This document shows, piece by piece, positions 2,131-32,973 of a DNA stretch of 64,000 bases. The position numbers and the translations under genes were made by a program. The first letter of the stretch is position 1. Every line of letters starts with the position of its first letter. Origin of the DNA: Bilabrum cf. latius (taxonomy: Eukaryota); contig OZ237739.1 of assembly GCA_965178125.1 (NCBI GenBank), forward strand, positions 1,302,001 through 1,366,000. The letters run 5' to 3'. The notes below the pieces were generated by a model. That model saw nothing but the letters and a program-made list of their open reading frames with translations. It had not been told where the DNA came from and searched no databases.

Positions 2131-5100
2131 ATGCAAGGGTCGGCACGATATGAAGGCCAGTTTGCACCGATAGATCCAACAACTAGAACTGCCACAGTAT
2201 CGGGCACGTTGAGGGCTCAGATCGCGCGGGGACTAGGTGCGAGCCTTCAGGTGGATGCTACTGCCGAAATCCGCAGGATTTCAGAGTCCCGAACAATGCG
2301 TACGACGCTGGCTGCCACAGCAGCCAAAGATGGGTATTTGGGAGACGTTAAACGGGACCGTGCGTTGGCTAAGGTGCCTCGATCGGTGCTGAGCCGCACG
2401 GCAGTGCGAATTGGCGACGCAACTGCGTCCGTTGCAGGTGCAAACCAAGACGCTGCCGCAGTTGCGAATGACATCGATGAATTCGAGCGACGTTTAGAAG
2501 AACAGAAGAAGGCAAAAAAGGAGAAAAGCAGGCGCAAGCGCGGCAAGTCGACCGCAAAGTCAGTTGGGGCCCCAGCTGCTGAATCAAAACATGAAGTGAC
2601 GTCCGCCATGCGAGAGCTGAAAGAAATCGTCGACAGAGAACAACGAGACGGCACCGCAGGCATGCTGGTCGCGAAATCCGCGACCGCGGCACCGAGAGGC
2701 GTCACTACCGGCAGGGCGCTCGCCTCGGATGCTGCCCCGCTCGCGGCGGGAGCTACGGCCGCCATGCGACCAGACGTGCTCGCCTCCGCCGTCCGCGATG
2801 CAGATCTCAGCAACATGCGAGTGCAGGCCTTGGACGACGAGCTGCGCCGCTTCAGCAGCTTGGAAGACCTCCGTGTGAGCGGGGCGTAGATGCCGCTCCT
2901 CGAGCTGGGCTGCCTGCCGCCCTCTATCCGCAGCGTGCAGGCATACGGCTCGGGGATCGAAGAGGTCGCTTGGAGGGAGGGAGAAGGAGAAAAGAGGGGG
3001 GGAATGTCAGGGGGGTGGGGAAGCCGGCCGCCCAGCCGCGTCACTCGTCACACGATGGGCACAAGTCCGGGCTCAAGTGCCGGCCCCAGCGCAAGCGCCA
3101 GTCCCAGCGGCTCGCCCCGCCCGGGCGCCTCCCGCCTTGGGGTCACCACCGCCTCGGATGGAGGCATTCGGAGCCGAATTTAGGCTCGAATGGGCGAGCA
3201 GCTCACTCGGCTGGTGCACCTGGGTCTGGGGCACAACTCGATCCGGAGGCTTCCGGCTGACTTGCCGTCGCGGTGCCATGCCCTCCGCAGCCTGGACCTC
3301 GGGTGGTGTTCCCTGGAGAACGGAGAGAACCTTCTGCAGCAGGCCGAAGAGCTCTCACGTCTGTCCCACCTAAACACCGCTGGCAACCCCTGCTGCATGG
3401 CGGTGGGGTTCAGGGCCGAGACGCTCGCCAGGCTGCTGGGCCCGCCTTTGGGCCGTCGCACCATCGTGCAGTGCAGCACGGGCGCCCCTGGCCTTTCGCT
3501 CCACGAGCTGGACGGTGCCGGCGCAGTCAACGGATCCAGGAGGTATCTGAGAGAGGTGCGAGCTAGGGTGGAGGAGGCTGCCGTGGGCGGAGGCGAGCAT
3601 GGGACTGGGGCTGGGGCTGAGGCTGCTGCGGTCGATGGTGCATCAGGGCTGGGCGGGATGTCTCCACCGGGACAGCAGGCGGTACCGCCGATCGAGGGGA
3701 TATCTACTTCTGATATCTCTGGCTCTGAGGCAGCTAGTGCTAGCCCTCGTGGCTCAGCTGATATCTCTGGCTCTGAGGCAGCTAGTGCTAGCCCTCGTGG
3801 CTCAGCTGATATCTCTGGCTCTGAGGCAGCTAGTGCTAGCCCTCGTGGCTCAGCTGTAGCAGTTCCAATGTCTGGCCTGGCGCGATTGAACGATTTCCTG
3901 AAGCGTGCCCAGCGCTGCAGTGGCATGGCCTGGGAAGCTGCTGCTAGTTCACAGTAGGGCAAGTCACAGGGGAAGGAAGGGACAGGCGATGGCTCTCCTC
4001 CTACGTCTCCCTCTGATGGATACACAGAGGGCTCCAAGCCAGCCACCTCCCGCAGCAGCGCACGGAGCAGCAAGGGCAGCAGCAAGGGAAAGGGGGCCAA
4101 GGGCAAAGGCAAGACAGCCTCCCCGCGCCCTGCATCCGGCGCAGGTAACAGCAGCGGGGATGAGTCCGCCCAGCCAGCAAAGCCTCGCTTCAGGGCGGAA
4201 GTGTCCCCGCCGCTGCAACGGGTCCTGTAGCCGCTGCAGCCCGGCCTCAAGTGGAGGGGGAGCGCAGCCTCAGGGGCGTACGCCCTGGCCGGCCCACCTG
4301 CTCTAGAGGACGGCCTGGTGCTCCTGCGGGTGGGTGTGGGCGCGCTGTGGGGCCTACCCGCAGTGGAGCCGGTGCTAATGAGGCTGCTGCCTAGTCCCGG
4401 AGGTGGGGCGGGAGGTGGGGCGGGAGGTGGGGCGGCGGGGGGAACTGACCTTGGGTACGACCAGTACCTGGAGTTGCTTGCAGCTGCGATTACGCGGCAG
4501 AAGTAGGTCGATGATTCCGCGATGGCAGCCGTGGCAGGGACCGACGAGGGTGAGGGTAAAGAAGCTGCAGGCGGGGGCGAGGCAGTGGGCGATTCTGCGG
4601 CAGGACGCTTGGGCAAGCCATCGCCGCGGGCAGGGAAAGGAAAAGGAAAGGACAAAGGCAAGAACGAAAAGAAGGCAAAGGGCAAAGCCAAGGGCAAGGG
4701 CAAGGGCAAGGGCAAGGGCAAGGGAAAAGGCGGTGGGGCCGGCGAGAAGGCCGAGGAGCTGCGGGGTATCCGGCAAGCGTGCCAGCGCGCAGCAGCAGAT
4801 GCCATATTGGACTGGTGCGCAGCGGGGGCCAGGCGCACGCGTCTGGTCCTGTCGGTGGGTCTCCGCGTGCCGCCGCCGCTGGCAGCAGAGCAGGCTAGAA
4901 CGGCAGACCCGCTCGTCACGGCGGGGGTGCTGTTTCCGGCGGTGCCATCGGCGCAAGAGCCCGAGGCAATGACGCAGGCGGTCTCGGCGGCGGCGGCTGC
5001 TGCTGTGGCAGTAGACTCCGAGTCTGGCGATCGAGGTTCGGAATCAGGTTCAGGGAGTCCCAAGGCCAATGGCCGCAGCGGAAACAGCAAGGGAAAGGGG

Positions 5101-6717
5101 GGAGCGTCCAAGGGCAAGAAGGTGTCCCCGAAGGGAAAAGGAATGGGCAAAGGGTAGGAAGAAGAAGAGGAGGATGATGGGGGAATGCGGGAGGTCAAGG
5201 AGCAAATCAGCATCGCCGAGGAGCTGCGTCGGCGCATGTGGTCGAGGGAACTGCCGCCGGCAGTGGTGCCTGACTTGCGGGCATGCGTGGCGGCCCGTCC
5301 GTCTGTCGCAGTCAGGGACGCAGCGGCACACGAGGGGCTGTGGGTGTCTCTGGTGGAAGAAGAGCTGGACATGGAGGTGGGGAAAGTGGACGGGAGCGGC
5401 GGAGATGCCGCTGAAAGTACGAGAACCCCACCTGATTTCTGGGAGTCCGTCTCCGGTGTGGTGGAGGCTGTGCCTGAGGGTCATGTAGCGGAGCATGAGG
5501 TGCTGGCAGCCGGGGCCTCTCTCCCAAGATAGGACTAGGACTAGGGCCAGGAGGGTGTCAAGAGTAGCAGCATCGCGGGCCTGGACCTGGCGGGGTACGA
5601 GGCACTGAGGCGGAAGGAGGACCGGGTGCTGCAGGGCAAGGAGGATGAAGATGAAGATGAGGAGGAGGAGGACATAGCGGAACCAGGTGCTCCTGCCGGT
5701 GTGGCTGCATCGGGCGCGGCCATCCCAGGAGGATCTCCTCCGCACCGGCAGCAGCCGAGGGTGCTACGGAGGAGGCTCCTGGCGGAGGGGTACCTGCCCG
5801 CTGGAGACCTGCCGTGTCCAGGCACGGAGCATCAGTGGGCAGCTGAGGCAACCGGCAAGGAGGCGTGGCAGGCGGCGGCACGGGCTGCGGAGTGCGGGGG
5901 TGCCGCAACTCCAGCCGAAGCGCTTGCACTGGAAGGGGTTTCTGCCTCCAGTATGGACGATGGCGATGGTGCTCAGGCAAAGGGCAAGGGCAAGGAGAAG
6001 AGCAAGGCAAAGGGCAAAGGGAAGGGGAAGAAGGGGGGGGCTGATCCGGAACAGGAAGATGTGCCACAACCCGCCGTGAGGCCAGTCTCCAAGGCACAAC
6101 AGGACCCTGCCGAAGCCGTGGCTGCGCGGCGCCGCGCTGGACAGGTTCCGCTGCAGCTCCACTGGCGCGAGCTGCCGTGTGCGTTGAGAAGGGCGGCTCT
6201 GGCGGTGTCACTGGCCAGGGTGGTGCGGCGGCGCGGGGGTTAGGGCCTGGAGGATGTTCGGGGCAGCAGGGGCGGTGCTGTGGGTGGTGGAGAGGGGGGG
6301 GAAGAGGAGGAGGGCGATGGCGGGGACGAGGCTAGGGCGCTTCGGGCAGCGGCCCAGGCTGTGCCCGCCCCCGCCGTGCTGTCTGCCCCGGCATGCCAGG
6401 CGGCCAGTGGTGCGACGAGCGGGAGCATGGTGTTTGGGGTGGCGTTGAGGAGGGGCGAGGGCGAGCTGGACGAGGTGCAGGGTGTGCAGGGGGTGATGAA
6501 GGTTAGTCTCCGAGCCATCAAGAGAGGGTTGTAGTCGTGGCCACTGGATGGCGAGAGGGTGCCCAAGGAGGGTGGCCCTGCGTCTGACAAAGAGGGCGCG
6601 GTGTCTGGAGACGGTGGTGGCGAAGCAGCGCGTGCGACTGGGATCCCGCCCCTCGTGGCTTGGACATCGTTCGAGGCGCTGCGGACTGGGTGCTGGTTCG
6701 CAGAGGATGGCTCTTAA
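2131..6717 (+). CDS. Leucine-rich repeat protein (LRRC43-like), ~1528 aa with TAG=Gln
   Basis: One frame from ATG 2131 interrupted only by 11 TAGs (2887, 3181, 3955, 4228, 4504, 5155, 5530, 5536, 5542, 6241, 6532), ending at TAA 6715. LRRs: FSSLEDLRVSG, LTRLVHLGLGHNSI, LRSLDLGWCSL, and cap LSHLNTAGNPCC. The LRRC43 resemblance is from memory. Confidence 0.75.
3710..3856 (+). repeat. Three perfect tandem copies of a 48-bp coding unit (DISGSEAASASPRGSA)
   Basis: CTGATATCTCTGGCTCTGAGGCAGCTAGTGCTAGCCCTCGTGGCTCAG starts at 3710, 3758 and 3806. Confidence 0.95.
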
Positions 6718-6877
6718 TCTGCGGCGGCGCATCGATGGTGGCTGTGGACGCGACGGGGGCTTGCAGGTATTTGAAGTTTGCTCCTTGAATTTTCCACCTA
6801 GGAATTCGCAATCCACCGCACGGTGACCGTGCACTGCACCGGCAGTGGCCCTTGGACTCGGAGCGTCAGCTAGATAT

Positions 6878-8887
6878 ATGCTTTTCTCTACTTTTTTTCG
6901 TGCCATGCTCCGACAATGTGGGTCGCGGTTCTTTCGACTGAGCTGTGGGAAACACCGCAGCGTGCAGACCCGGTCCTTGCTCCCCAGCGGACGAATTTTG
7001 AAGTCCATCACCAGCAAGTGCTTCGCGATGGATAGCAGAGAGGTATCCCGCTCCATCGCTTCATCGGCGACAAATTCTCAATCTCAGAGGCAACGAAAAG
7101 CTAAAGCATCGTAGGGATAGTAGCAGCAGCAACCGCAAAAGAGATCTGAGCCTCCCAAGAGTAGGAGAGGAGCTGGCGTGGAGAACCAGGTAGTGCTATC
7201 GATGTCGGGGATCACCAAGGTGATTCCAGGCAACCGATAGCTGTTGAAGGATGCAAGCATGTCATTTTGGCAAGGCGCTAAGATTGGGGTCCTTGGTCTT
7301 AATGGATCAGGCAAGAGCACACTGCTGAAGATTCTGGGCGGAGTTGACAAGGACTACGATGGCGAAGTCACGCTCAAGACGGGCCTGCGAGTCGGGTATT
7401 TGCACCAAGAGCCTCCAATGAGGCAAGGATCAACCGTTAAAGAAGCGATTTTCGAGGGCTTGCGGGAGCAGCTGGATCTGATCGACCGGTTCAATGACCT
7501 CAGCAATCGAATGGGCGAGCCAGACGCCGATTTCGACAAGCTGATTGAGGAGCAGGCAGAGGTTTAGGGATTAATCGAAGCCGCGGATGGATGGAACCTG
7601 GAGCACCTGGTAGGAATCGCAAAGCGCGGCCTGAACGTGCCCCCGGACGACGCTCTGGTGGATTCGCTTAGCGGCGGGGAGAGGCGGCGTGTTGCCCTCT
7701 GCCGGCTGCTGGTCGAGAAGCCCGACCTGCTGCTGCTGGACGAGCCCACAAACCACCTGGATGCAGAGTCCGTCCACTGGCTTGAGAGGTTCCTGGAATC
7801 GTATCCCGGTACTGTGCTTGCGGTGACACACGACAGGTATTTCTTAGACAGCGTGGCCGGATGGATCCTGGAGGTGGATAGAGGAAATTTGTACCCTTAC
7901 GCTGGCAACTACAGGGTCTGGCTCGAGCGCAAGCAGGAACGGTTGAACTCGGAAGCGCGAGCAGACAAGGCGGCCAAGCGGGAGCTGGACGAGGAGCTCC
8001 AGTGGATCCGGGCGGGCACCAACGGGAGGCAGCGCAAGAGTGGTGCTCGGATTAAGGCATTCGAAGGCAAGCAGGACGATCTGCTGGCCAAGCAGCAGGC
8101 GCAGAGGTTCAAGACGGGAAGGATCGCCATTCCCCCTGGTCCTCGCCTGGGTCACGATGTAGTGCAGGTGGAGAACCTCACCATCTCCGTGCCCAAGGAC
8201 CGGCCGACCGGGGGCGACGGTCGCGAGGGAATCGACACAGAGGACGATGGGTCGGGCGAGCGGAGGATTTTGGTGGAGGAAGCCACGTTTACCATTCCCC
8301 GTGGAGCTCTGGTGGCCGTGGTGGGGCCCAATGGGGCGGGCAAGAGCACGCTCATGCAGACCCTCCTGGGACTCCGGAAGCCAGACTCTGGCAAGCTCGT
8401 GCTCGGCAAGACGGTGCAGCACGCGTACGCAGACCAGGGGCGCAACCTGGAAGAAGGCTAGACGGTGATACAGGCCGTCGCTCAGAACCAGGAGAACGTC
8501 GCGGTGGGAGACCTCACCGTCCACACGCAGCACTACCTCGCCAAGTTCAGCCTCTCGGGCGCCATGTCCAAGAAGATGGTCAGGGACCTTTCCGGCGGCG
8601 AGCGGTCGCGGGTCCATCTTGCTCGAACTCTGCTGAAGCCATGCAACGTGCTTGTGCTGGATGAGCCCACGAACGATCTCGACGTGGAGACTCTGCGCAG
8701 TCTGGAGGAGGCGCTCGAGCAATACTAGGGAAGCGCTCTCGTCGTCAGCCACGACAGGTACTTCTTAGACAGAGTCTGCACTCACGTGCTTAGTTTCGAA
8801 GGAAATGGCAAGCTACGTTGGTTCGAAGGGTCCTTTTCGGACTGGGAGCAGCGCTACGGCGCCAAGACCAAGCTGGCCACCTCGTGA
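6878..8887 (+). CDS. ettA: ABC-F ATPase, EttA-like, with a putative mitochondrial presequence, ~669 aa
   Basis: Motifs [105 protein letters not shown] and [12 protein letters not shown]. Continuous through 7 TAGs (7112, 7118, 7121, 7238, 7565, 8459, 8726) to TGA 8885. Start is 6878 or 6905. Confidence 0.92.
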
Positions 8888-9007
8888 ACCTTGCGGCTAC
8901 CGCTGCATGACGTGTACATTGTATTGAACAGAAACAACCAGTTGCGTGTGGTAGTGAAACTAGAAGAGAACAGATTGAGAGACAGTCAACAACATGGGCA
9001 AGTTGCA

Positions 9008-11464
9008 TCACTTGCCGCCCTTGGCCTTTGTGGCCTCCGACTTTGGCAAAAAGGCGGGGGGCTGTCCTCCCGCACCTGCACCTGCTGCACCTGCAGCGAC
9101 TTTCTTGCCCCATTCGCCAGAAGGAGCTGCGCCCGCGGGGGCAGCCGCTGCCTTCCCTCCCTCGCCGAGGCTCGGGAACGACCCAGGCTGGACGGTGTTT
9201 TTGGGTGTCGCCGATGACGAGGACTTCGCCTTGCTGGAGGAACCGCCCCCCTGCCCACCCTTCTTGCCACTGCCACCTCCACCGCCACCCCCGCCGCCAG
9301 ACCGATTGCTCCTCCCCCTCCCATTCCCTCTGCCATTGCCCCCGTTGTGCTTGCCACCCCCACCCCCACCGCCACCCCCGCGACGGTCACCACCACCACC
9401 ACTGCCCTGCTGCCGCCCCCGACCCTATCCCTATCCCTATCCCTATCCCTATCCCTATCCCTATCCCTATCCAGGACGCGGCTGCGCGAACCCCTACACA
9501 GGCACACCCCCCCCCTGCATGGGCGGCCTCGGAGCCTGCATGCCCCCTTGCATGCCAGCGCCCGCCACCGGCAATGCCATGCCTCCATGCTAGCCGGGCA
9601 TACCTGGCATGCCACCAGCGGGATACCCCATCATCGGCGCCCCAGGACCGCCAGGAGGTATCCCCTGATAGAACTGCGGAGGCGGGGGCGCGCCCATGTA
9701 TGGGCCTGTCGCACCCTGCACGAATGGCTGCGGCATGCCCCCCATGGGCACCCCTCTCGGAGGCATGGTGCCGGCCCCCGGACCGCCCATCCCGCCTCCC
9801 ATCGGCATGGACATGGGCACGCGGGCACCGCCCCAGCCGCCAGCATGCGGGGGTGCCATGCCCATCGAGGTGTGCACTGGCGGTGGGCCCATTGCCTGGC
9901 CAGGCCCTGCCATCGGCATGCTAGGGTGTGGCCACCCCTAGCTTGCTGCCATGCCCGGGCGTGGGCCCGGCGCTGACTGGCCTGTCGGCTTGAAGACGGG
10001 GGCGTTCGGATCTAGCTTGAACGGTGCGGCATTAGGGTCGAGCTTAGTCTTTGCCTTGGCTGGTGCCGGTGCTGGAGCCGGCGCTTGGCCCTAAGATGCC
10101 GCAGCAGGTGCAGGTGCAGGAACAGGTGCAGGAGCAGTGGCCGGGGCCAAGGCAGCAGCTGAACCGAGTCTCTAGTTCAGACCCATGGAGAACTGCCTCA
10201 AACTCTCCACCTCTGTTTGGCGATCCACTGAAGCAGGCTTTCCTTTAGAGCTGGAGCTCTTGTGCACCAACTTGTGACCCTTCTTCCCACCGTGCCTGGA
10301 CAGGGCCTTGCGATGGGCGTGCCCATCCTCTTCGAGCTTCTGGAACACCCTTGCCTTGACGTCCAGCTGCTTCTTGGCTTGTTGGTTCCCGACGGGTGCA
10401 GCAGCCGGGGCAGCAGCCGGGGCAGCAGCCGGGGCAGGAACGGGAGCAGGAGCGGGAGCAGGAACGGGTGCCGGGACGGTACGGCGAACGTCAGAGAACC
10501 TTCCCTCGGAGTCTTTCTCGTCCTTGCCACCCGCCGCTGCCCCGGTCCTCCAGCTCTTGGCACCCTCCGCCGCTCCCGGCGAGCCCATGGGAGCAGCTCC
10601 ATGGCCGATGGATTTGCCCTTGCCTTTGCCCTCGATGGCTGCGGCCGCCCTGGCGATTTTCCTCCGGTCCTCTGCAGAGAGCTCCCTCTCGTCCACCTTT
10701 TTGGTCGTGTAGTCCTGCTCCTTGAAGCCGTCGAACTTGACACCGATGTTCTCATTGGCCTTGAACTGATCGAAGGATTTGCCGGAGGAGATGGCGTCGT
10801 TCGGGGCGCTCCCGGCGTCCTGGGGCTGCAGCCACGACTGGTCCACGTCCTCCAGCTTGCGCTCGCCGCCGGCTGCACCGCCGTGCCCCTGGCGTGCCTG
10901 GGCCACTCGCTGCCCGATCTGCGCGTCCGTCGTTCCAGAGATAGACCCGGATGCCATGGACGTGCCGCCGTCGGGGAAGTACGCATCTTCTGCGCACATC
11001 TCTTCGATGGCAGTCCACGGGATAGTGAGGAAGTTTGCTTGCTTCTTTGGAAGTGAGATCGCCGACTCAAGAGAACCCTTCTTCTGCGCGCAACAAAAAA
11101 TAAATCATGCATGTTGCGTAGAATGATAGGAGTCCATACTTAGGCCACGCCACGATAAATTCCAGGCCAGTGTGAACTTACGGCGCAGTAATAGTGCTGC
11201 AGGTTCACCGACTGCTGGCTCGAGTTCGACCTGTCGCTTGAATGGTATTGCCCAATCCATTCCGATCCGTCGACACAATAGACAGTGACCTTCTCTCCCT
11301 GCGAAGATGCAAACAGGCATATTGGCACGGGTCCAGGTATCACCAGGGTGTAGCCGCACGTAGAACTCACATTCATGCCGCACGTGCGCAATACTGGTGA
11401 CCAAGCCCCGAGTTCTTACCTGGAGAGCAGTGAATGCATAAAGGACGCGCTCAGCCGATGACAT
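9008..11464 (-). CDS. ATXN2: Ataxin-2/Pbp1-like protein (Lsm, LsmAD, tandem PAM2, Pro/Gly/Met-rich and RG-rich tail), ~745 aa; exons 11464-11420, 11298-11182, 11083-9008
   Basis: Sm-like start ERVLYAFTALQGEKVTVYCVDGSEWIG, LsmAD FDQFKANENIGVKFDGFKEQDYTT, and PAM2 KLDPNAAPFKLDPNAPVFKP. Two GT-AG introns (121 and 98 nt) keep frame. About 13 in-frame TAGs. Ends TGA 9010-9008. Confidence 0.85.
9425..9472 (-). repeat. (GGATAG)8 coding repeat = (Gly-Gln)8 under TAG=Gln
   Basis: (CTATCC)8 on the plus strand, read GGA TAG in the ataxin-2 frame. Confidence 0.9.
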
Positions 11465-11596
11465 GATTTGCTTTCTATGTACTGAATGGGGCAGACTAAA
11501 CTATTTTGCCCTCTAGGCCCAAGTAACGTGTTGTTCCTTCTCAAAAAAATCAGAACTTGAGTGCCACCGACAAACTGACGGTCCATTCCAGCAGCA

Positions 11597-14500
11597 TCAC
11601 TCCTCCATGGCTTCTGAACCGCGGGACTTATCCACTGGGAGCTCACCAGGCAGCAGCATCGCATCGTCGTCGTCTTCATCGTCTTCGTCGTCGTCGTTGT
11701 CGCCCTCACCTTGCCCCGCGCCGCTTTGCTGCTCGTCCGGGCTAGCTGCATGCTGGTGTCCACCAGCGGCCCTGCCACTGCTAGTGTCCCTCAACGCAGA
11801 TGACGACTATGCAGCACCAGTCGATGCCCCTTCCATTCTCTACTGATGCAAAGGCTCGTCTTCCTCCTCGCCTGAACCAGCCGTCTCCCCACGTGGCTCT
11901 GCGTCAGCCGCACTCGCCCTGGCCTGCGCTGCAATGCGCTGCATCCTATCCAGCGCGCCCGACAGCTCCGACTCCACTGCTACCAGCTTCTTCAAGCAGC
12001 CTTCGCTGCCAGCATCCACGCTCCACATAGCAGAGCCCGCCCCTTGCTCGGACCAACCCGCGCCCCCACTGCCAATCCCACTGGCGCCGCTGGTCGTGTT
12101 CCTCCCCGCCGAAATGCCCGCGGTGCTCAAAATCTACACCAGCGCGCCGTCATCTACCAGTAGTTTCAGCTCCGAGTCCTGCCGCGAGGGAACAAACACC
12201 GGCAGCCGAAGCTCACCCGCCGCACCGGCCCCGCCCTGCCCTACCCCTAACCCAAGCCCGCCTCGGAGACACGCAGCGGGCAGCTTGCCGACGTCCTCCG
12301 CGTCCAGCCCCAGCGCCGCCGCCATCTCCACCAGCTGTTCCCTGCGGGCCGCAGCGGCCTCCCTGACAGTGACGAGTGCCTGCCTCACCACTGCCAGGGA
12401 CAGCGACAGCAGAGCGCCAAACGACCTCCTTGCCTCCTCCGGGCTCGACCTCGCGCCCACGATTCCCCGGTCCCCTACCCTCTCCAGAACCTTGCCCACG
12501 GCCCGACGCAGCCTGCCGCTAGGGTCACCCCCGTGCTCCACGGCCTCCTGCTCCACCAGAGCCCCTGCTGACCGCCTGGGCCACCGGTGCCCTCGCCCTT
12601 CCCCGTCTTCGAAGTCGACCTCGTCATCGTCCTCCTCGTCCGAGCTCTGCATGGCAGACCGCTTCCGCTTCTTTCCGCGGAGCCTTTTCCCGCCAGTCTT
12701 CTTCCCCCCCTTGCCCTTGCCCCTAGATCCCGCCTTCTTCTTCTTCGGAGCCGTTTTCCGGCCTCCCACGATCTTGACGAAGATGCCGGTCGTGGGCTCT
12801 GGCTCCAGGCCCAGCTGGATGCACCGGTTGCGGATGGCAGTCTCACTCCTCTTGGCCCCCGAGGGGAACTGCAGGGTCTGTGCCAGCGTGAACACAGCGC
12901 TCTCGATGCCGCCGAGGCTGCCGTGCTCCTCCTGTAGCGCCTTGTCGTCTTCCTTGGTCCAGGCAGGCCCCAGCCCGCCGCCACCTCCACCGGCCATGTC
13001 CTCCTCCTCGTCTTCGTCTTCGTCATCCTTCATCGCGTCGACAGGCGCGGATGGCTTGGCATCGCTGACCGGCAGTGCCTCTGCGGCCTCCCACGCCCGG
13101 ATCCGGAGCGCCCTGAGCTCAGCCTCCTCGTCGTTATCGTCGTTGACGGCAGCCGTCGCGTCCCACTCCTCCTCGTCGATCTCGCCCCTGTTCTGGGCCA
13201 GCTGCTCGTCCGCTTCCATCCTCGCCAGCTCGGCCTTGGAAGGTCCCCTGCCCGGGCCCTTGGCACCGCCGCGGCGGCTGCCCTGCGGCACGAGCTCCTC
13301 GTCGTACCCCACCGCAAGCAGGAGGGTGGCACCTCTCTCCCGCCACGTGATGGCCTCCACCAGCACCAGCGGGGACACAACCGAGGCCGTGGTCAGCGTC
13401 TGCACCACCTCCATGCACACCACCACGAATGGTGCGTACTGAGGCTTAGCCACGCGGCTGCCCGCAGACAGAGGCAGCCCGTCGGCACCGCGCTGCCCGG
13501 GCTTGGCCGCCTCCAGCAGCCGGAGGTCCGTCAGGGCTGCATTGCACACCTCCAAGAAATCAAAGTGCCACAGAAGAGGAGCGAAGGTGCGCGGGAAGCA
13601 CGCCTGCTGCGCAGCCGCCAGCCTGTCCTGCGCGCCCTCCTCCTCGCTGATCGCCTTCTCCATCACCTCGCGCGCCGCCTTGGCCTCCTCATCCAGTGCC
13701 GCGGCCCTGTCCAGCAGCTGCGACGTGGTCATGCCCAAGATGCCGGACTTGCCGGCGCCGGACGCGTCGCCGTCGCTCGCGCCGCCTCCAGCAGAGCCGT
13801 CGGCCGACCCCTCGCTCGGCCGCTAGGCCCCCGCGTTTGCCTGCCTCGCCGCCTCATCCGAGGCCTGCTGGGCGGCGTAGTACTTGGCCTGTGTGGGCTC
13901 GACCGCGGCCGCGCGGATGTCGAAGTCGATGGCTGCGCTGCGGTACTCCTTCACGGCGCTCCCGTCGCAGATCGACCTGAGCCTGCTCTCCACGGCACTG
14001 GGGTCCTGGTCCGGGATGGGGTGCCTCAGGATGCGCCGCATGATGTCAGCGGCCGCCTGCAGCTCGCCGGTGGGCAGCTCCGCGTAGCCTTGGGCCACGA
14101 AGAGGAGGGCCTGAGCTGCCTTGGGCTGGACGAGCTGAGCCAGGTAGCCGTGGTAGTCGAACGCCTCCTCGCGGATCTCGCTGGACGCCTTCTTCTTCTG
14201 CTGCTGCTCGCGCATGCCCTGCGCCACTTCCTCCTCGTCCTCGTCCTCGTCCTCGCCCGCAGCTGCGGCGCCGCCCCTCCTGCGCCTTTTTTTCTTCTGC
14301 ACCAGGAATCCATCCCGCGCGAGGGCCTCTCCCATCGACAGCATCATCTGCATGCAGCTCACCAGGTCGAGCGTGAAACCAGAGGTGAAGCGCCCGAACT
14401 CCCAGTTGCGCATGACTCGAGGCACCACCTCCATCACCTCACGCTCGTAGAAGAGCATCCGCACCATGGCCTTGCCCACCGCCCTCGAGTCGTCGTCCTC

Positions 14501-17118: not shown

Positions 17119-17999
17119 ATGGCCGGTGTTGCTGAGGGTTCATCACCATTTGTAAATGAGGATGGGACGCTCAAGGAAGTGAAGACCGATTATTGCCCCC
17201 GTGAGCAACCAGAATAGGTTGATCGTTCTCAGCCCGCCGAGAGCATGCCAATCCACGCGCATCATAACCATGTTCGTCCAATGAATAATGCATCTATATC
17301 TATGCAGATTGCGGGTTGCCGTCTGAGTTTTGTGGATTTGCACCGGAGTACGAAACGCTGTGCAAGCCTCACTTGGCCGAGACGAACCCCGAGTTGCTGG
17401 CTGAGATCGAGGATGAGCGAGCAAAGGGGTTCAAGCTTGTGTCGAAGAAAGCGCCAAAGGTAGCCGCTGCGCCCGCAGAAGCTGCCGACCCGGCAGCAGG
17501 AGCAGAAAGCGCCACTGCACCAGCATCCGGCGCGGGAGCCGGCGGCGACGAAGCCGCACCTGCCGAGGCGTCTGCTGAAGGCGGGGACCCATCTGCACCA
17601 CCGCTGAGTCCAGAGGAACGCGCTAAGCGCGAGGCTGAGGTGAAGGCGAGAGCGGCCCGCGCCGCGAAGTTTGTCATGTGCGTGCTTCGCGAGACACGCG
17701 CGAAGAAGAACAAGAAGAACAAGAAAGACAAGAAGAGGAACAAAGTCTCTACCGGCATCGTGGGGATCGATGCCGCGGGTTTGGACCCCAAGGAGGCCTG
17801 CAAGACGCTTGGCAAGCGCATGGGCACCGCCTCCGTGCTGACCAAGAGCGACTCTGGCAGGCCTGAGATCTAGCTGCAGGGCGACCACATGAGGATCATC
17901 CCGAGGATCCTGGTGGAGGAACTGGGCGTGGACAGCGGGATCATTCGGATCGTGGAGGAGATCGACGGCAAGCTGCGAGCCAGGAAAGCATTCGCCTGA
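17119..17999 (+). CDS. DENR: Density-regulated protein DENR/Tma22 (Zn-binding N-terminus plus SUI1 domain), ~257 aa; intron 17201-17307
   Basis: Spliced DYCPHCGLPSEFC, then RNKVSTGIVGI..LDPKEACKTLGKRMGTASV and EI[TAG]LQGDH. Ends TGA 17997. Confidence 0.88.
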
Positions 18000-20124: not shown

Positions 20125-23100
20125 ATGGAGGAGAGTAAATCGGAGAAGGGGGTGGACGACCAGACGGAAAGAATGGAGCTGGCAGTCCAGCCTTACTTCG
20201 TGCCTGGTCTGGCTGCGTCTGCGGTGCGCGCGGCAATTGAGCATGCTGATGAGGTGGAGCGCCGCACGGGGTGGGTCCCACAACAACCCGTCCCGTACCT
20301 GGTAAAGCTGCTGGTGTCCCGTGACCCGAACTCGCTCCGTGCGAAGCACCCAAAGTACGGCCACAGCCTAGGACTGTCAGAAGCAAGGCTGTATGCAAGT
20401 CTCCGACCGCCGAAGAGCTATCCAGTGGGTCTATTGGTCACTTTGCTGGAAAGAGAGCGAGCACTTGCCCTGCTGCGCCGCACTTCGGTAGAACGAGTGC
20501 GGGAAGCCAAGCGGAAGCTCATGCGAAAACTACACAATGACTGGGCGCGCGCCCGCAACATCCTAAAGCGCGTTTCGTGGGGTCCTGCCCCCGAAGACGT
20601 GCACGAAGAGCTCCGCGAACAGGGGAGAGCCGCGCTCGGTGCCCCCTGGGGAGCAGCATCCCTGGCAGGTGTCGGAGCAGGTGCTCGGGCTGGCAGTGAT
20701 ATGGGGCTGGGTGAGGGCTCGGCGCGCGAGGGTGACCGCGGGAAAATACAATTTTCTCGATTGGATCGCTGGGCGGGCCCCCCTGGGGAGGAGCCCCTGG
20801 ACCGGCTGAAGCTGAAGCTGGCGGCGGCTGCGGACGAGCAAGCAGGTGCTTCTGCCACGTTCGCGCTCGCCCCGGAGAGCGCCGCGGCCACGTCCCTGGG
20901 CGCGCTCCGAGCCCACCTGGACACCAGACTAGGTCTCAAGGCTCGCAGGAGAAGCGCGGTAGAGACAGACCACAAGGTTCTGGCCCAGGCAGCAGCCATG
21001 GGCATCCTCACGGGTCCTGGGGGCAAGCCACCAAGCCTACCTGCCGGCAGGTTTCCCGCCCTACTCCCCGCAAGCAAGGCGGTGCACAGCGGTCCAATGA
21101 GCGGCGTGGAAGGAGGAGACAGCGGCAAGGCGAACAGGCCAGGCCGTGGTCGCGGGGGTCAACAGCACCAGCACCAGCAATAGCCATACGTCAGGCGAAG
21201 GGGGTCCACAGCTGTGCCTGACGTGCAGACTGCCCTCCGGCTCCGGGCCATGGTGGCCACTGACGTGCCCTCCAGCGACTTGTCCCTGGGAGTACGAGCG
21301 CAGCACGGAAGAGCAGCGGGCGGGGCAGGGAACAGAGAGGGAGCGGCAGCAGCAGCTGCTGCGGCAAGCAGCACTGGAGATGGCTCGTATCCTCATGGGC
21401 CTGCTGCGGGCAGCTACTCGGGCTTGGCCGCGGGTGGTGGTCAGACTGCACGATCGACTGCTCAGAGCACCGCCCGGAGTGGTGACGGCGTTGGTGCTCA
21501 CGAAGATACACGCTAGCCTACCGCCATGCAGCTAGTGCCTCGGAGCGGAGGTGCAGCTGAGGCTCGCGCTAGGGCCAAAGACCTCACTGCGGCCACGGAC
21601 GTGCTGCTGCCCCCAGACGTGGACTTGGGCCTTCGCGGGCCGCTGTGGCAAGACTGCCTCTACTCAGACTATGCGCACAGGGCCCCACTCTAGCGTCTCG
21701 ATTTCCAAGGCATGACGTCGTACATGACGGACCCGCTGCTGCTTCGCATGCTGGGGCAGACGGGTGTTCTGTCGAGCCTTCGAGCCCTGCTACTGGCAGG
21801 CTGCAGGATGGTTACCGGCCCTGCGCTTCTCCCGGTGGTGTTCCAGGCGCAGCATCTGGTGGAGCTGGACGTCAGGCGCTGTGAAGGGCTGGGGGCGGGC
21901 TTCTTCCTCGGTCTGCTGGAGGACTCGCCTCCTCCTGCTGTCGCCGGGGCTGGGAGCAGTCGCAGTACTCGAATGCGGGGCAGGCGCACAGCGAGGCCGG
22001 CTGCTCGCCTGTCGCCGATCAGGGAGCAGGCAGGTCAGGGCGATCCATCGGCCGCCAAGCCCAAGACAAGCGCGCCCAGGGACCGACTGAAGGTGCTTCG
22101 GGCGGGCGGGTGCACCTGCGTCGACGGAAGGGTGGCGGCAAGGCTGTGCGCGGAACTGCGAGGCCTAGAATCAATTGATCTTTCGCGATGTCCCCGCATC
22201 ACGGATAAAGTGCTGGACGCTCTAGCAGGCCGACCAGGCGCTGTAGGAGGCGTGGGAGAGGGTGGTGGAGGGGGTGGCTCCAAGACGAAAGCAACGGCTG
22301 GATGGGGCCAGATCGAGCAAGTGTGGCTGGACCACTGCAAGGAGTTCAGCGAGGAAGGCTTCATGGCTCTCGCCTCTCATGCGGGGAGCCTCAAGCGACT
22401 GTCTCTGGTGGGCTGCAGGCAGCTGTCTGGATCGGCGTTTGCGGGCTTGCCTGCCCCTGTGGTGCGTCGGAGGCGGGTGGTCATGGTCAGTTCCAGGGTG
22501 CTGAAGAAAGAAGGCGTTCTTGTGGACGACGACGGCGCCGCAGCAGTCATGCCTGCACACGAAGGTGGGGACCAAGGCATGCAAGGCCCTGTAGGCAAGC
22601 TAGTGGGCGAGGGCGATGGCTTTCCCTCGGCAACGGACCGACCTGTCGTGGTGGCACTGGCCAGGCACGACCTTTCCGCTGCCCGGGAGCAGGACGAAAG
22701 GCCGTTGGTAGGGCACCGAGAGCTGCCGAACATGCTGGTTGCGAGGCTCATGCGAGCCACTGGGCTCGAGATGGATTTCCCCGAGAAGATTCGGGACGAT
22801 CACGCGCAAGCTCTGCTGCTAGCAAACCGTCTCGGCTTTGACCAGGAAGTGCGGGAAGCGGCCGCCGAGGTCGACGCTGTGCTGGACGAGGCGTTGGAGC
22901 TGTAGGAGAGGATTGGCAATGACCCTGCTAGGCACGCCAGCAGCACCATCCGCTAGTCCATCGATCCGCACCAGGAACAGGACGACGAGATGCTGCTAAT
23001 GCTGGCAAACGCTGTGAATCCAACCGTGGACAAGCACATGAATTCCACCAGCGCCGCCCGCGGTTCCGCCTCCGCAAGTGGCGGCAGGAAGAAAGCCATG

Positions 23101-26100
23101 GCTCGCCGCGCAAGGAGGCGTAGCGTCACAATCGGCGCTCCCGTACTGGAGACGAGGGGTGACCTGCCCCTCGCTGTGGTGCTATGGAGGCGCAGGCATG
23201 CAGTGAGGCGCTCCGGGATCGACCGCTTGAAGCCGTCCGGGGGCGTGATCGAGCAGCGCGCCGCGGCGAGCCGCAGCGCGGGCGAGGGTCACCTGGCAGC
23301 CGCTGGTGCTGTGGTCTCCAAAGAGGGCAACCTAAGCAGCATGGAGGCGAGGGCAGCCGTGGGAAACGCCAAGGGACTGGGCAGGCGCAATGCCGGCACC
23401 GGACGGCCTGTGGAATCGTAGTACGTCCATGTCAAGGGCAAGCTCGGAGTCAATCCAGACCACGACGTGATCGGCGGCGGCGGCGAGGTGGGCGCTGGTG
23501 GAGGGCACGGTGCAGGCCACGAGGGCGGGGATGGGGGTGGGCTGACTCTAGGGGAGAAAGTGACGCGCAATAGGCGAGGCAGCCTGGCTGGGATTGACTT
23601 GTCGGGGACACAGGCCATGGAAGCCGCCGCTGCAAAGATCCTCGGCAATACGGGGCAGCTTCCGCATGGTGAGCCCGGGGTCGATGAAGCGGACTTGGGA
23701 AGGGGAGAGTCGCGCGCGTCAAGGAGGTCCATGGAGTCTAGCAGTAGCAGCAGCAGCAAGCAGGCACTCGCCGCGGCTGCAATTGCTCGGCAGCGCGAGA
23801 CGGTGATCTTCCTTGCGGCTGCGGCTCTTAGGAAAGGGCGCCGATTGGACTGGGCCCAGGGCCTCGAGAGCAGGTGTGCCCTGGAGACTCTGAACCTAAC
23901 AAAGTGCGCCCTCGTGGATGATGAAGGGCTCGAGTACGTTGCAAGGGCGTGCGGTGAGCTCAGGTCGGTGCTGCTCTCGAGGTGCGGGAGAGTGGGTCCC
24001 CGAGGGCTGGCTGCCTTGCTCACAGGCTGCCAGAAACTGGAGGAGCTGGACCTAACCGACTGCGTGCAGATCGACGACGGAGCTCTGCAGGTTGCGGTGT
24101 CCTCCAGCGCGGCGGGCGGGTCCAAGCTTCTGCTACAAGGATCAGACAGCGGTGGGGCCAGCCTCGCCGCCAAGCAGCTGCAGAAGGACAACGTGGATGA
24201 GGGCATCGAGAAAGTGGCTCGCGAGATGGCCACGCCAGCCGCACAGGCCCGCAAGGCCGCCCTCGCAATGGAAAAGTCGCGCAAGCGGGAGCAGGCACTG
24301 GTGAAGCTCGCGCTCAACGCAGGCACGGAAACGAGCGGTCGGCGAGGCTTTGCGTCGGGTGCGATCCCCGACCGCTTCGAGGCGGACGGCGGGGAGGACC
24401 AGACGTGGCTGCAGGCGGTGCGGCAGCCTGTGCCATTGAAGGTGTTGAAGCTGACTGGGTGTCACAAGGTGAGCGATGCCGGTGTGGACATCCTGGCGAG
24501 TCGGTTCGGTCGCACGCTGCAGGAGCTGTGCCTGGAGGGCCTGTACCGAGTGACGGACGAGGCACTTGCGTGCATCGCACGAGAGTGCTACGGCCTGCGC
24601 GTGCTTCGCGTCGGTGGCAGGTTGAATCTGCAGGTGGTCGCGATGAGGCGCGACGAGGCAAGGGGCGAGGGTGAGGGCAAGGAGGCGGCACTGGGTGGTG
24701 GCAGCAAGTACGTGATGGCCGTACGTGCGATGGATCCCGGTGACGACGATGGAGTCCTAGAATCCGATGGGGACGACGACGGGCCGAAGAAACAGGGTAG
24801 GAAGGTAGCTCTGCCTTCGATCGGGGTGCAGAAAGTGGCGCCGGAGCGGCGGCAACACACGTTTTTTGGCCAGCCCAAGATCACGGGGGCGGGTCTCGGC
24901 CTCCTGTTCCGGTCCCTTGCCATTCGGGCCTCGCTGGAGGTGCTAGACCTCAGCAAGTGCGTGACTCTGGATAGCAACGACATCCAGGCGATGCTGCCGG
25001 CGCCACCCGCCAACTGGAAGGACGCTCACGCTCGGCGCGCAGCCAGACAGAGACGGAAGGCGGCAGAGCGAGCAAAGCGCTGGCGCAAGCCCCGCCGCCC
25101 AGGGTCTCCGGTCCCAGGTCGGCACATCCACGGCTTTGTTTTGCCGGGTAGAATTGGTGGTGATGCGGGTCTCGACCACCCGCTGGTTGCCCCAGGGCGG
25201 GCGTACTCAGACACAGGAGAGCTTGCGATGGTCCGTCGACCGCGCCTTATTTCAGATCAGTCGGACGGGTACGTTGGCGGGATGGGAGCAGGTCCGGCCT
25301 CGCCCTCCTCGGGCACCGGTACTGGCATAGTATCCGCTCGGGATGGTCAGGACGCTGGGATGCTTGCTCTGGCAAACCAGGCACATCGACCGCCCGCCGA
25401 GCGCCAGACCCATCGTCAGGCCACCCCGACGGGGCACAGCCAGCGGCGCATGAGCACGCCTGCATTCTCCCCTGTTGGGGTGTTTGTGGCCCCTGCTCGC
25501 TCCCGAGCCATTTCGTTTGACCCAGAACAGGTGCACAGCATGAAGAGCCCAGCCCTGGACCGAGGGGGGTTCGGAAACACTTCTCCGCACGCACGTGTGA
25601 TGGCCGAGTCGGCATCACCCGCACCTCCAGGGCAGGAGGCATACGGACGTGTCCGGATGGCCCCACTCACGCTGCCGTCGTCACCATCTACCGATCCCGT
25701 CACCAAGATGCTATTCGCAGCGTTTGCTGCTCTCGAATCGTTCGATGATGCCGGACGGTTCGTTGTACCTGCGAGCGCTGGCACGGGCGGCGGCACAGGG
25801 CTGGCAGGGCTGTCGATCAAGACGCAGCTGGATCTTCTGTCGGCTGCCAAGCGCCCACGCCGAGTCAAGTGGGGCGGCGCTCTCGGTTCCACTCAAGCCC
25901 CCAGCATGCTCATGCGCAGGTCTCACTTCGGCAAGCAGGAGTCGTGGCGCGCGCGCGCGGGCAAGAAGCTGGGCGCAGGTGGGCTGTCCCTCCTCGAGCT
26001 TGAGGAACACCCGGCCAACGTGTACAAGGGGTACTTTGACATGCGGCGGGGCTCTGCCGGTGCGGTGCAGCACAAGCTCCTGCTCCCGTCAGGCATGGAG

Positions 26101-29100
26101 GAGACAGACAACGAGCAGGACGTTGGCGGGCCCCATTCTGCCTCCCGCCCAGACCCATACGAGGATCTCGACGATCTGTCCAGCGTGGCGTCGTCGATTT
26201 CCAGCCTATCAGGGGCCAGTGCAGGCAGCGAGGAGTTTGACGCAGAGCTGAGGACGGAGCCATTCGCTCTCAAGGAGCTGGTTCTGCCCGGCGTGCAGGT
26301 GGACGACGATGCCGCCATGTGGATCGCACGCTGGCTCGAATGGCAGCATCACCTCTCCCGGGAGCCAACCGACATAGCGGCAGAGCGGGAGCGCAAGACC
26401 GCCATGCTGCCTCCTTCCGCACGGCTAGCTCCGGTCGTTCCCACAGAGGCAGCTGAAAAGCGGCCAGGCCTGCAAAAGCTGTACCTGGCCAAATGCAGGC
26501 AGCTCACGGACGTCGGCGTGGCTGCACTGGCGCTAATGCTCCCGCACGCAACGCACGTGCAGCTCGACAGCTGCCCTCGGCTGACCTCGTTCGCCGTGAC
26601 TGCACTGGCCCGTCGCTGCAGCGAGCTCAAGTGGCTGAGTATCAAGGGATGCGAGCTCGTGGACGGCCGCTCCATGCTGGCCATCTCCAGGATGTGTCCA
26701 TTCATGGAGCGAGTGCAGGTGGCGAGGTGCCCTGGGATCAAGCAGGCCGCCATGCTGGAGGCAGCTGCATCCTTGCACCGTGTGTGGATGGGTCTCGAGT
26801 CCTCGCTGGAGGTGCTGCACGCCCCGGCCAGGGCGGAGCGCATCGGTTCTATCGCATCTGTGTCCACGTCCGGCTCGTCACTGGCTGGATCGCACAGAAA
26901 AGCCTCCAGAGGTTTCAAAGGGCTCGTATCCGGCGGCAAAGCTGGGGCCGATGACGACGCGAAGAGCGCCGGATCAGCCGACAGCATGGAAGCTGTGGCG
27001 GACAGCGAGACTGTGGCTGTGCCGGACGGGGACACTGGTCCTGGCGGTCAGCCAATTGCTGCAGGAGCAGGTATGCCTGGCGATGCCATTGCTACTGAAG
27101 TCGGATCAAAGGATGATGCGTTGCCGGCTGGATCTGGAGTGATCCAAAGATACGAGGCCTGGGTCGAGCGCCAGACCGTGCGAAAAGGGAAGGCAGTCAG
27201 CGGAGTGCGGCTGCTGAAGGGCGCCAAGGACATGGACAGGAGCGAAAGGAAGCGGAAGGAAGGACTACATTGGACGGGGCAAGGCATCGTTCGGTCCTCC
27301 AGTGCAGCCAGCCACGGTATAATAGGGGCAGGCAGCGCACGTGGTGGGTCCGCGAGGCCTGCCGTGCCCCTGCCGCAGATTGCAACGCAGGAGCATTCTG
27401 GCTCCTCTTCGATCAGGAGGTCCTCAGTGCTGTCAGCTGTGTCTAGGAAATCGGGTTCATCGCGGTAGAGGAAGGCCTCCATGGCGGGAAGCGTAGTGTC
27501 GGCCAATTCTGTGGAACTAGCGGGCTTCGGAGCCGGGTCGCCGGAACTTCTCATCGTCACGCCAGACAAGGGCATGCGTGGATGCCCGCCCATCGCGACT
27601 GCTTGCTTCTAGAAGCGAGCCTTGGAACAGCGGTCGGCGCTTGTGCTGCAGCGGGCACTCCGGTCCTACCACATCAGGTGCATGTGCCTTCGGGCGCAGA
27701 GAGCCGTTGAGACGGCCCGTCGTGAGCGGGTGTACCGCGCTGCCATCGGCGTGCAGATGCTGTGGAGAGCCTACGTGGCCCGCAGGGTATTCTACGCTCG
27801 TCACATGGAATGGCTGGGCCGGGTCACGAAGGAAACCAAGAACGGCGCGCGGCTGATTCAGCGGATGGAGCGGGGCAGGCAGGCGCGTGCCGTCACACGG
27901 TCGCTTCGGCTGGCTCGTAGGCTGCGTCTGCTGCACGTCTGGCGCCAATTCAAGAGGCGTTACAACCACTACGTCCTAGAAAAACCCGAGCGCGCCACTT
28001 TGGACATCCAAAGGGTGTGGCGTGGGCACGTCGGGAGGGAGCTGTACAAGCGGGAGACGGGCCGGACCCTCGGGGCTGTGAAGCGCCTGGTTCGCTGGTA
28101 CCTGCACACCCAGGCCATGGATCGCATTCACGGGCGCCCGGCGGCGCGGGTGCAGGCCCGCCAGGACCTCATTCTGCACGCGAGGCCTTATCCATGGCCC
28201 ACGCCGGAGCTCGCCAAGGCTGCTCGGAGGAGGAGGAAGCGAGTGAGCAAAGACCCTCCCGAGCCAAAGAGCTGCTTCCGTTGCAGGTTTCCGGACGCGG
28301 ATCCGTTGCGGGACGGAGAGGCCTGGGCTGCGGTGATCAGGGAAGGCGTGGGTCAGGCGCAGGCGGGTCGCATGCCCGTGGCACAGCTGGCTACAGGGCT
28401 GCAGCAGCGCATCCGGTGCCGGAGCATCGCAGCGCTCTGGGTGCAGACTCGATTCAGGGGATGGGTGTACGGCCGCAAGCCGTATTTGGCCCTGCTGCAG
28501 CTTCGTGCATCGTCCGCCTCAATGATACAGCGCAAGTGGCGACGCACACATGCCCGCGGCACCTTCGCTGAGGTGAAGCAGCGGCTGCTCAGGGCAGCCG
28601 AGCACCTCCAGGCAGCCGCCCGTGGTCGACTGGCCAGGCATCGGTTCGTGCGGCACTTTATCGTCTATCGGTACCTCGAGACGCCCCCCATGCTCTTCCT
28701 GCCGAATGCCACGTCTGTGCGGGAGGTGGCTGCGTGGGTGTACCACCGCGGCGAAGACCCGCGGGCGAAGGCCCATGTCAGGAGCCTGCTGGGTCACGGT
28801 GCAGACATCCAGGTCCCGGCAGCCCGGGCCGAGGCTGAGGAGTCTCTGCGTGCGGTGACCGTGGCTGTTCGTTTAATGCGAAAGCGTCACGTTTACCGCA
28901 GCAGCCCGCTCATCGAAGAAGTCTTGAAGATGCGGCATTCGAACGGGAGGGAAGCGCTCAAGATAGTCAGGTACTACCGCCGGCACAGGTTCCGCGCCCT
29001 TCTACACAACCGCATCTTCCAGCGGAGGCTGGGCGAGATGCGGCGTAGAAATGCAGCTTGCACGATTCAGCGGCAGTGGAGGGCACACGTGGAGCGGAGG

Positions 29101-32100: not shown

Positions 32101-32973
32101 TCCGGAGTTCGAGGGTCCAAGAAGGAGGGCGCCTCGAAGAAGGCCATGGCTCTGTCCAAGGCGAGCGGGCTCAAGTTCGGCGCGTCTGTCTCTGGGGGCG
32201 ATCGTGACGAGGACACGTTTCAGGACCCCGCGACGCAGAGGAGGTTTGCGGCTGTGCTGGCCAAGCGGCTCAAGCTGGACCGTCTCACGAAAAACTTCGA
32301 GGGTAAGGAAGAGCTCCTGAAGAGACTCAAGAGACAGGAGGACGAGATGCGGGACAGGCGCGCGTTCGGCGGGAAGAGGGACGGAGGCATGAGTGTAGTT
32401 GTGAGCTCGGCCAAGCTCCGGCTGGCGCAGGTCAAGCTGGGCCTGGATGACGACAGGAGGGTCAGGGGCAGGCCAGGGCGATTCGGGATGCGCGGGTGGG
32501 AGTGGACGCTGACCACCGCCCGGCCCGACTCGGGCGAGCTGACGGACGTTGACGTCAGGCTGCGTCAGGCCATCGCCTCACTGGAGGACGCGCGGGTGGT
32601 CGGGTTGCATCACCACGCAGCCATGCTAAGGGAGGTTAGGAGGCTGAGGAGGGAGCGGGCGCAGATGCGCGGCGTGATGGCCAATGCCCAGCTGGTGGAC
32701 GCACAGAGGGAGCAAGGAATATCTTTCTTCCGGTCTGCGGCCGACGAGGTCAGCGGGGAGCTGGCTGATGCAGAGCTTACGGTGAGGCGGCTCCGGGGTG
32801 AGGCGGGACGGCAGGAGCGGTCCGTGAGGAAGTTCCTCGGCGAGCTGGCAGAGCACGCGAGGGAAGAGGGCGGGATGGTCTCGAAGGACTGGCTGCTGGA
32901 GGCGTGCGACCAGCTCATGGCCGGGGTGGGAATCGAGGTGCGGAGGCACAGGGGGAAGAAGATCATCGTCTGA
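20125..32973 (+). CDS. Giant single-frame protein with Cys-containing (FBXL/AMN1-type) LRRs and multiple IQ motifs, ~4282 aa
   Basis: One 12849-nt frame broken only by 12 TAGs (21181, 21514, 21691, 22903, 22954, 23419, 27466, 27610, 29467, 29782, 30754, 31189), ending TGA 32971. LRR_CC examples: LESIDLSRCPRITD, LEELDLTDCVQIDD, LKLTGCHKVSD. IQ examples: IQRVWRGHVGR, IQKIARGTMAR. Confidence 0.85.

Follow-up and report, generated by a model that had tools for sequence, protein, structure and literature searches.

Stop-codon reassignment is rare in nuclear genomes, and most of the cases found belong to an AT-rich setting. The described systems closest to the one presented here are nuclear codes in which UAG alone has become a glutamine (Gln, Q) codon, with Iotanema spirale, Protocruzia tuzeti, Hartmannula sinica and Trochilia petrani among the examples named (PMC11687900, PMC5304391). 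In a second group, both UAA and UAG (UAR) are read as Gln, the cited examples including many ciliates, the Ulvophyceae, Hexamita, Streblomastix and Amoeboaphelidium protococcarum (PMC11687900, PMC5304391, PMC2984419). Ciliate proteins are also reported to carry Q-rich motifs expanded through reassigned TAA and TAG codons (PMC10942620). Here, we analyze a 64-kb stretch of DNA (‘the window’; positions 1,302,001 to 1,366,000 of contig OZ237739.1, assembly GCA_965178125.1, deposited as Bilabrum cf. latius), in which a hexanucleotide microsatellite, (GGA TAG)8, lies in the reading frame of an ataxin-2-like gene. Our joint reading, which we regard as highly probable, is that UAG has been reassigned to a sense codon in this DNA, most probably Gln, and that the array is translated as (Gly-Gln)8 in a protein ending 138 codons later at UGA.

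The array is perfect and continuous with a long open reading frame (ORF). Tandem Repeats Finder identifies a period-6 array with unit CCCTAT at 9423–9472 (8.3 copies, 100% matches, 0% indels). The plus strand reads ccctat eight times, and the minus strand reads (GGA TAG)8, filling 9425–9472 exactly, with a GGA before each of the eight TAG codons (starting at 9469, 9463, 9457, 9451, 9445, 9439, 9433 and 9427). A perfect 48-base array of a hexamer is no chance event. Its frame is that of the minus-strand ORF 9008..10999, which counts 663 codons from its first ATG (the frame is open to 11083), carries 13 TAG, ends at TGA and requires a sense reading of TAG to be open; the (Gly-Gln)8 reading would occupy residues 538–553 of the exon-3 product. 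The array thus shows the features of a coding microsatellite, namely a perfect unit, a length that is a multiple of three and an in-frame position, in a stretch (9262–9481) that is presumably exonic. An earlier annotation made from the letters alone, hereafter the sequence-only reading, had described eight in-frame GGA-TAG pairs preceded by GTG TAG GGG TTC GCG CAG CCG and followed by GRGRQQG and about 140 more codons. All of this holds, with 138 codons counted from the array to the TGA at 9008–9010. The peptide it named, NTVQPGSFPSLGEGGK, is encoded at 9152–9199, and the second case it cited, TAG GAC TAG GAC TAG GGC CAG at 5530–5550, is likewise in frame, in a long plus-strand ORF. Its suggestion that TAG could freely expand within coding sequence, as a microsatellite, seems reasonable.

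The use of TAG elsewhere in the window indicates that the array is one instance of a general rule. Sixteen gene models, defined from long ORFs and domain matches and totaling 17,773 codons, contain 89 in-frame TAG, compared with 108 and 111 in the +1 and +2 frames, so that the in-frame rate is close to the off-frame rate. TAA and TGA behave differently: in-frame counts are 0 for both, against 40 and 48 (TAA) and 261 and 281 (TGA) in the +1 and +2 frames. Fifteen models terminate at TGA, one at TAA and none at TAG, each model being ended at the first TGA or TAA. In-frame TAG also interrupts domains that continue past it, in an EttA-type ABCF protein, an ABCC protein and a thioesterase, and lies inside a SUI1 domain. 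The EttA-like and ABCC models each extend to the end of a domain alignable over its full length with a solved protein, EttA (E 1e-167) and ABCC5 (E 2e-200), respectively. Two points weigh against this picture. Because the models take the first TGA or TAA as their stop, the zeros for these two codons are partly built in, and no transfer RNA (tRNA) gene was found in the 64-kb window, outside which the eRF1 gene lies as well.

The absence of TAA bears on how far the reassignment extends. Gln-type codon usage comprises 566 CAG, 122 CAA and 89 TAG, the latter making up 11.5% of TAG, CAG and CAA together. From the CAA:CAG ratio about 19 in-frame TAA would be expected and none is present, a count drawn from 64 kb and from models in which TAA is a stop. 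UAA is therefore probably still a stop or avoided, which suggests a reassignment of UAG only, with UAA not read as Gln.

Under the standard code, the ataxin-2-like protein would stop at its first TAG (10174) and the repeat would lie in a 3′ untranslated region. The textbook meaning of TAG is all that speaks for this, and the explanation is left with almost no probability. The EttA, ABCC and thioesterase domains run past TAG; a pair of PAM2-like motifs kept in an orthologous metagenome contig (L001, described below) lies downstream of two TAG; and a single intronless ORF of 4,282 codons on the plus strand, 20125–32973, contains 12 TAG and neither TAA nor TGA. The sole Pfam matches of the latter ORF are leucine-rich repeats (LRR_6, E 4.5e-10; LRR_4, E 0.018). 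Leaky readthrough is insufficient as well, because even 30% readthrough at each of the thirteen TAG per message would yield about 1e-7 of the product. The sequence-only reading had proposed efficient UAG decoding in place of leakage, and the 89 in-frame TAG, the zero counts of TAA and TGA, and the lack of a TAG terminator in any of the 16 models agree with it.

Codons that act as sense or stop depending on context exist in Condylostoma and Blastocrithidia, where other codons are involved. An analogous ambiguity of UAG, with the eightfold run serving as a brake on full-length yield, is very unlikely here. Partial termination would be compatible with the window, and the base following TAG is G in 38 of the 89 cases; however, CAG has a similar bias toward a following G (236 of 566), none of the 16 models ends at TAG, and TAG occurs at about the same frequency in frame and off frame. 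With thirteen TAG in one expressed gene, appreciable competition from termination would leave almost no full-length product, which argues that UAG termination has been abolished.

Whether the array is retained in the message was approached through the assembled contigs of four public runs (X1, X6, X7 and X8), compared with the window by position, with no use of depth. Contigs of X6, X7 and X8, from two studies, skip 11084–11181 and 11299–11419, both bounded by GT..AG on the minus strand, and the X1 contig is unspliced over 9482–11700. The spliced contigs are collinear with the genome down to 9577 (X7) and 9482 (X6), the latter ten bases before the repeat, and the stretch 9482–11083, with five single TAG, is unspliced in them. 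The absence of splicing from 11083 to 9482 in these contigs sets the reading frame at the start of the repeat (the GGA at 9472) to GGA-TAG. Beyond the repeat, contigs cover 8955–9261 (X6) and 9061–9218 (X7). The interval 9262–9481 is masked as a repeat in all four runs, so the gap itself says nothing about the mRNA, and for the same reason retention of the array is something we infer and do not see. Contig coverage of 9008–9600, a region for which the sequence-only reading had named RNA-seq as a check, is thus partial: collinearity to 9482 and coverage of 8955–9261 stand, and 9262–9481 is masked and unbridged. Its placement of the repeat inside a gene and in frame is upheld by the two spliced 5′ introns, the 138 further open codons and the best codon-usage score.

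The unbridged interval leaves room for a short in-frame intron that would remove the repeat, with or without its flanks. Each in-frame TAG supplies an acceptor-like AG, for which a GT at 9499 or 9477 is a conceivable donor preserving the frame. We give this explanation a slight chance at most. The two verified introns (98 and 121 nucleotides, nt) have GTAAG...CAG borders and a G+C content (GC) of 45–55%, whereas the masked stretch has 68%; the minus strand of 9000–9600 contains no donor of the GTAAG or GTGAG type; collinearity to 9482 leaves only 10 nt for a donor; and no run yields a joint across the region. Nor would a hidden intron account for the 81 in-frame TAG that the window has outside the repeat.

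Translation past the array is supported by codon usage. Over 9011–9424 the in-frame reading scores +9.6 nats, compared with +1.6 and −39.8 nats in the other two frames, and its 9011–9230 tail alone scores +13.4 nats. The Gly runs downstream use all four GGN codons (17 GGT, 17 GGC, 13 GGG and 4 GGA). On these sequence measures, the region downstream of the repeat is coding. Three points count on the other side: the RNA status of the four runs is a guess, and X6 is labelled ‘probably DNA’; no contig bridges 9262–9481; and a second frame, giving an Asp-Arg reading, is also open across and past the repeat, and the margin in codon usage is modest. Separately, in each of the four runs the depth summed over contigs rises to hundreds or thousands at 10013–10214, a Pro/Ala-coding (GCAGGT)-like stretch, and at 11629–11700, a repeat encoding an acidic tail; low-complexity sequence of this kind is common to many contigs.

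The amino acid inserted at TAG was read from alignment columns of three families and from the orthologue in L001. The EttA alignment contains 117 of 120 listed homologues, three of more than 700 residues having been left out, and its aligned region includes four TAG. At column 230, 113 of the 117 homologues have Q and four have E. In the acyl-CoA thioesterase, a TAG near the C-terminus is matched by Q in each of the two solved homologues (3bbj and 3rqb). In addition, the EttA-like gene has TAG within a CAG run (TAG GGA TAG TAG CAG CAG...). By eye, the frequency of Gln codons adjoining TAG is about that expected by chance.

L001 is a metagenome contig of 2,626 nt and about 58% GC that encodes an orthologue of the ataxin-2-like protein (49% identity over residues 15–165), preceded, as in the window, by the acidic C-terminus of the same upstream neighbor. 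The reading frame of L001 spans 498 codons, three of them TAG. One of these separates FDQFKAN from DYTT within the LsmAD core, and it is precisely at this codon that the database protein P0241 terminates. When the window and L001 proteins are aligned pairwise (207 identities in 584 columns), a standard Gln codon of L001 stands opposite the window's TAG at 10093. L001 ends in the Met/Pro/Gly-rich region, upstream of the position of the repeat, and is therefore silent on the array. A scan of genome contigs for further relatives gave 74 pattern matches, none of them confirmed.

Several positions do not favor Gln. In EttA, column 121 is divided between E (44) and Q (36), column 528 has K in 93 homologues, and column 617 has P (63) or A (44). 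Among the 111 of 120 ABCC matches that could be aligned, column 368 has P 46, E 44 and Q 1, and column 770 has M 46, V 33 and Q 13; the ABCC columns are, overall, uninformative about the meaning of TAG. The other thioesterase TAG is covered by a single alignment, where it faces F. Of the remaining window TAG compared with L001, one faces S and two face gaps; the window protein has K, D and F opposite the three TAG of L001. These columns could be taken to mean that TAG encodes another amino acid, such as Glu, Lys or Leu, making the array (Gly-X)8, and precedents exist in UAG-to-Leu and UAR-to-Glu codes (PMC11687900, PMC12153298, among the codes these sources describe). We judge a non-Gln reading unlikely, since the only two strongly conserved TAG columns, EttA 230 (113 of 117) and the thioesterase site (2 of 2), are Gln, and at the others the homologues themselves vary. 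Multiplying crudely across six columns gives Q an advantage of about 27 to 1 over E. The Gln value that the sequence-only reading had given to TAG is thus borne out by two strongly conserved columns, a small sample, and on this comparison TAG most probably stands for Gln, the best reading available. Paraphysoderma is among the ABCC matches, which raised the idea of an aphelid source related to Amoeboaphelidium; the base composition of the Amoeboaphelidium genomes (given below) led to its rejection. An Atlas search with a piece of the ABCC protein pointed to no taxon.

The gene that contains the array is built from three exons on the minus strand, joined in one frame of 745 codons ending at the TGA at 9008–9010. 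The coding part of exon 1 (11420..11464) has its probable start at ATG 11464–11462, and contigs reach 11476 (X6), 11473 (X7) and 11462 (X8). Intron 1 (11299..11419; 121 nt, GTAAG...CAG, 55% GC) is supported by the joint 11297>11419, with the cut at +1, in the X6, X7 and X8 contigs. Exon 2 (11182..11298, 117 nt), defined from contigs and sequence, would encode the central part of an Lsm-like domain. Intron 2 (11084..11181; 98 nt, GTAAG...CAG, 45% GC) is supported by the joint 11083>11182 in the same three runs and absent from X1. Exon 3 (9008..11083), delimited by the ORF and by contigs, comprises 691 codons plus the stop and carries all 13 in-frame TAG, the five single ones starting at 10174, 10093, 9940, 9592 and 9496. 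It contains a predicted LsmAD-like core (10628..10774; FDQFKAN ... DYTT ... AAAIEG), suggested by homologues and Atlas clusters, and two adjacent PAM2-like motifs (LDPNAxxF, 9992..10042) located 3′ of two in-frame TAG, suggested by a weak Pfam match and by their conservation in L001. The array itself belongs to the C-terminal half, which is disordered; a Met/Pro/Gly-rich stretch precedes it and an Arg/Gly-rich tail follows. The 138 codons that follow it (9011..9424), assigned from codon usage and contigs, encode the Arg/Gly-rich part with Gly runs and then a mixed tail.

The identity of the protein is less direct than the name ‘ataxin-2’ given by the sequence-only reading implies. Phmmer against 1.84 billion representative proteins returned six matches at E <= 0.001, indicating a very divergent protein. 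Five were scanned with Pfam: P0243, P0245 and P0246 have LsmAD in the aligned stretch (E 9e-17 to 1e-8), and P0241 and P0244 gave no Pfam family in the scan; the sixth, P0242, is apparently repetitive and unrelated, and was left out. In parallel, among the language-model clusters of the Atlas, each of the ten best with an assigned family is LsmAD/SM-ATX, the top score being 0.90 with 197 of 256 features. An Lsm-like (SM-ATX) N-terminus split over the three exons was recognized by eye. Four direct searches were negative: LsmAD (PF06741) has no match in the window protein at E <= 1 or E <= 0.1; exon 2 by itself has no Pfam match; a word-indexed homology search with exon-3 residues 1–170 retained none of 1,243 candidates at E <= 0.001; and the best match of the N-terminal 190 residues among PDB sequences is at chance level (E 1). 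PAM2 (PF07145) is detected at E 0.038 and 14.1 bits, under the cut-off of 20. The family assignment is therefore indirect, drawn from the LsmAD of three homologues and the Atlas clusters and not from a Pfam match of the protein's own LsmAD or a PAM2 above cut-off; ‘ataxin-2-like’ appears to be a fair name, with membership suggested by indirect evidence from sequence. The window protein resembles the Ataxin-2/Pbp1 family in its order of elements (Lsm-like N-terminus, LsmAD-like core, PAM2-like motifs, long Met/Pro/Gly-rich tail) and differs in having no LsmAD recognized by Pfam and a PAM2 under cut-off.

These observations can be assembled into a plausible mechanism. The window would be nuclear DNA of a GC-rich eukaryote with spliceosomal introns and UGA as the usual terminator. 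By the logic of reassigned codes as set out in PMC11687900, UAG would be read by a Gln-tRNA with anticodon CUA, eRF1 would not recognize UAG, and UAA could remain a stop since a CUA anticodon does not wobble onto UAA. The array most likely expanded through slippage, during replication, of a GGA-TAG unit, which a single transition separates from GGA-CAG; its copy number would then vary in 6-nt steps. Its role would be that of a low-complexity Gly-Gln linker leading into the disordered Arg/Gly-rich tail, and none beyond. Arg/Gly-rich disordered tails are typical of RNA-binding proteins.

Other features of the window are listed for completeness. The EttA-like gene (plus strand) and the ataxin-2-like gene (minus strand) converge, and only 120 nt separate their TGA stops (8887–9008), which points to a compact genome. 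A perfect (GCTGGT) array of 40.8 copies (1596–1840, 100% matches) lies inside the plus-strand ORF 678–1997, which has a weak GDSL-lipase match (E 3e-4); the array would be read as about 80 alternating Ala-Gly residues. If an adjoining 1,726-codon ORF began at 1537, it would overlap this array in a different frame; that start is probably incorrect. At 3710–3856, a perfect 48-nt tandem repeat of 3.1 copies within a long plus-strand ORF encodes a 16-residue unit three times. A DENR-like gene at 17289–17999 (plus strand; SUI1 E 1e-12, DENR_N E 2e-4) carries a single TAG, immediately ahead of the LQGD motif in the SUI1 domain. No first exon was found for this gene, and the protein has no match among PDB sequences. 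Finally, the minus-strand gene at 48365–50116 encodes an RsfS (iojap-type) protein with a long N-terminal extension, which may resemble an AP2-type DNA-binding domain; Pfam reports RsfS alone.

Codes that assign UAG to Gln are known, and the repeat is an illustration of complete reassignment that calls for no new mechanism. Eight adjacent TAG in an expressed, housekeeping-type gene are a compact demonstration of abolished UAG termination. What may be new is the host, with 63% GC, ordinary introns, organelle-type genes (an N-extended EttA-like protein and RsfS) and UGA as the main stop. A tentative proposal, which we consider possible and somewhat doubtful, is that the window and L001 represent at least two species of an undescribed GC-rich lineage bearing introns and organelles, in which UAG alone is read as Gln and UGA is the near-exclusive terminator. 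If so, this would be an independent origin of a UAG-only code outside ciliates and fornicates, with a base composition opposite to the AT-rich norm, and each independent reassignment bears on how a code can change. A new GC-rich lineage that retained UAA would also make composition-driven codon loss an unlikely explanation, and with UAG reassigned it would offer easy targets for mass spectrometry. Gene callers using the standard code would truncate nearly every gene of such an organism, P0241 being one case. Among public runs compared with 6800–12000, those filed under two organism labels (A and B) contain 99% of the sampled words, and RNA-like runs under two further labels (C and D) contain 32–85%; the matching runs come from four studies, as if from a cobiont or contaminant of several hosts. 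Several organism labels on matching runs would fit a widespread cobiont.

The comparison with known codes places the window nearest to those in which UAG alone is read as Gln. A GC-rich non-ciliate with UAG-to-Gln was not encountered in the literature searched, and we make no claim that none has been published. The UAG-only codes share three traits with the window: in-frame UAG falls on conserved positions for Gln, neither UAA nor UGA is seen in frame, and UAG does not serve as a terminator. The phyllopharyngean ciliates among them differ in composition, with 27.4–53.6% GC (PMC11687900) compared with about 63% in the window. In the UAG-only ciliates described, UAA is the preferred terminator, whereas UGA ends 15 of the 16 window models, the introns are ordinary GT-AG introns and the status of UAA is judged from 64 kb. 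The UAR-to-Gln codes, as described, likewise have UAG as Gln and UGA as a terminator, but in the 17,773 codons of the window models TAA is never in frame, against an expectation of about 19, and one model ends at TAA; Amoeboaphelidium is also much less GC-rich, with genomes of 40.5% and 39.9% GC (PMC10608142, Table 1) compared with about 63%. With the Q-rich expansions of ciliates, the array shares the participation of reassigned stop codons in low-complexity, Gln-containing tracts (PMC10942620). It differs from them in being a perfect Gly-Gln hexanucleotide microsatellite, set in GC-rich DNA where CAG is the main Gln codon.

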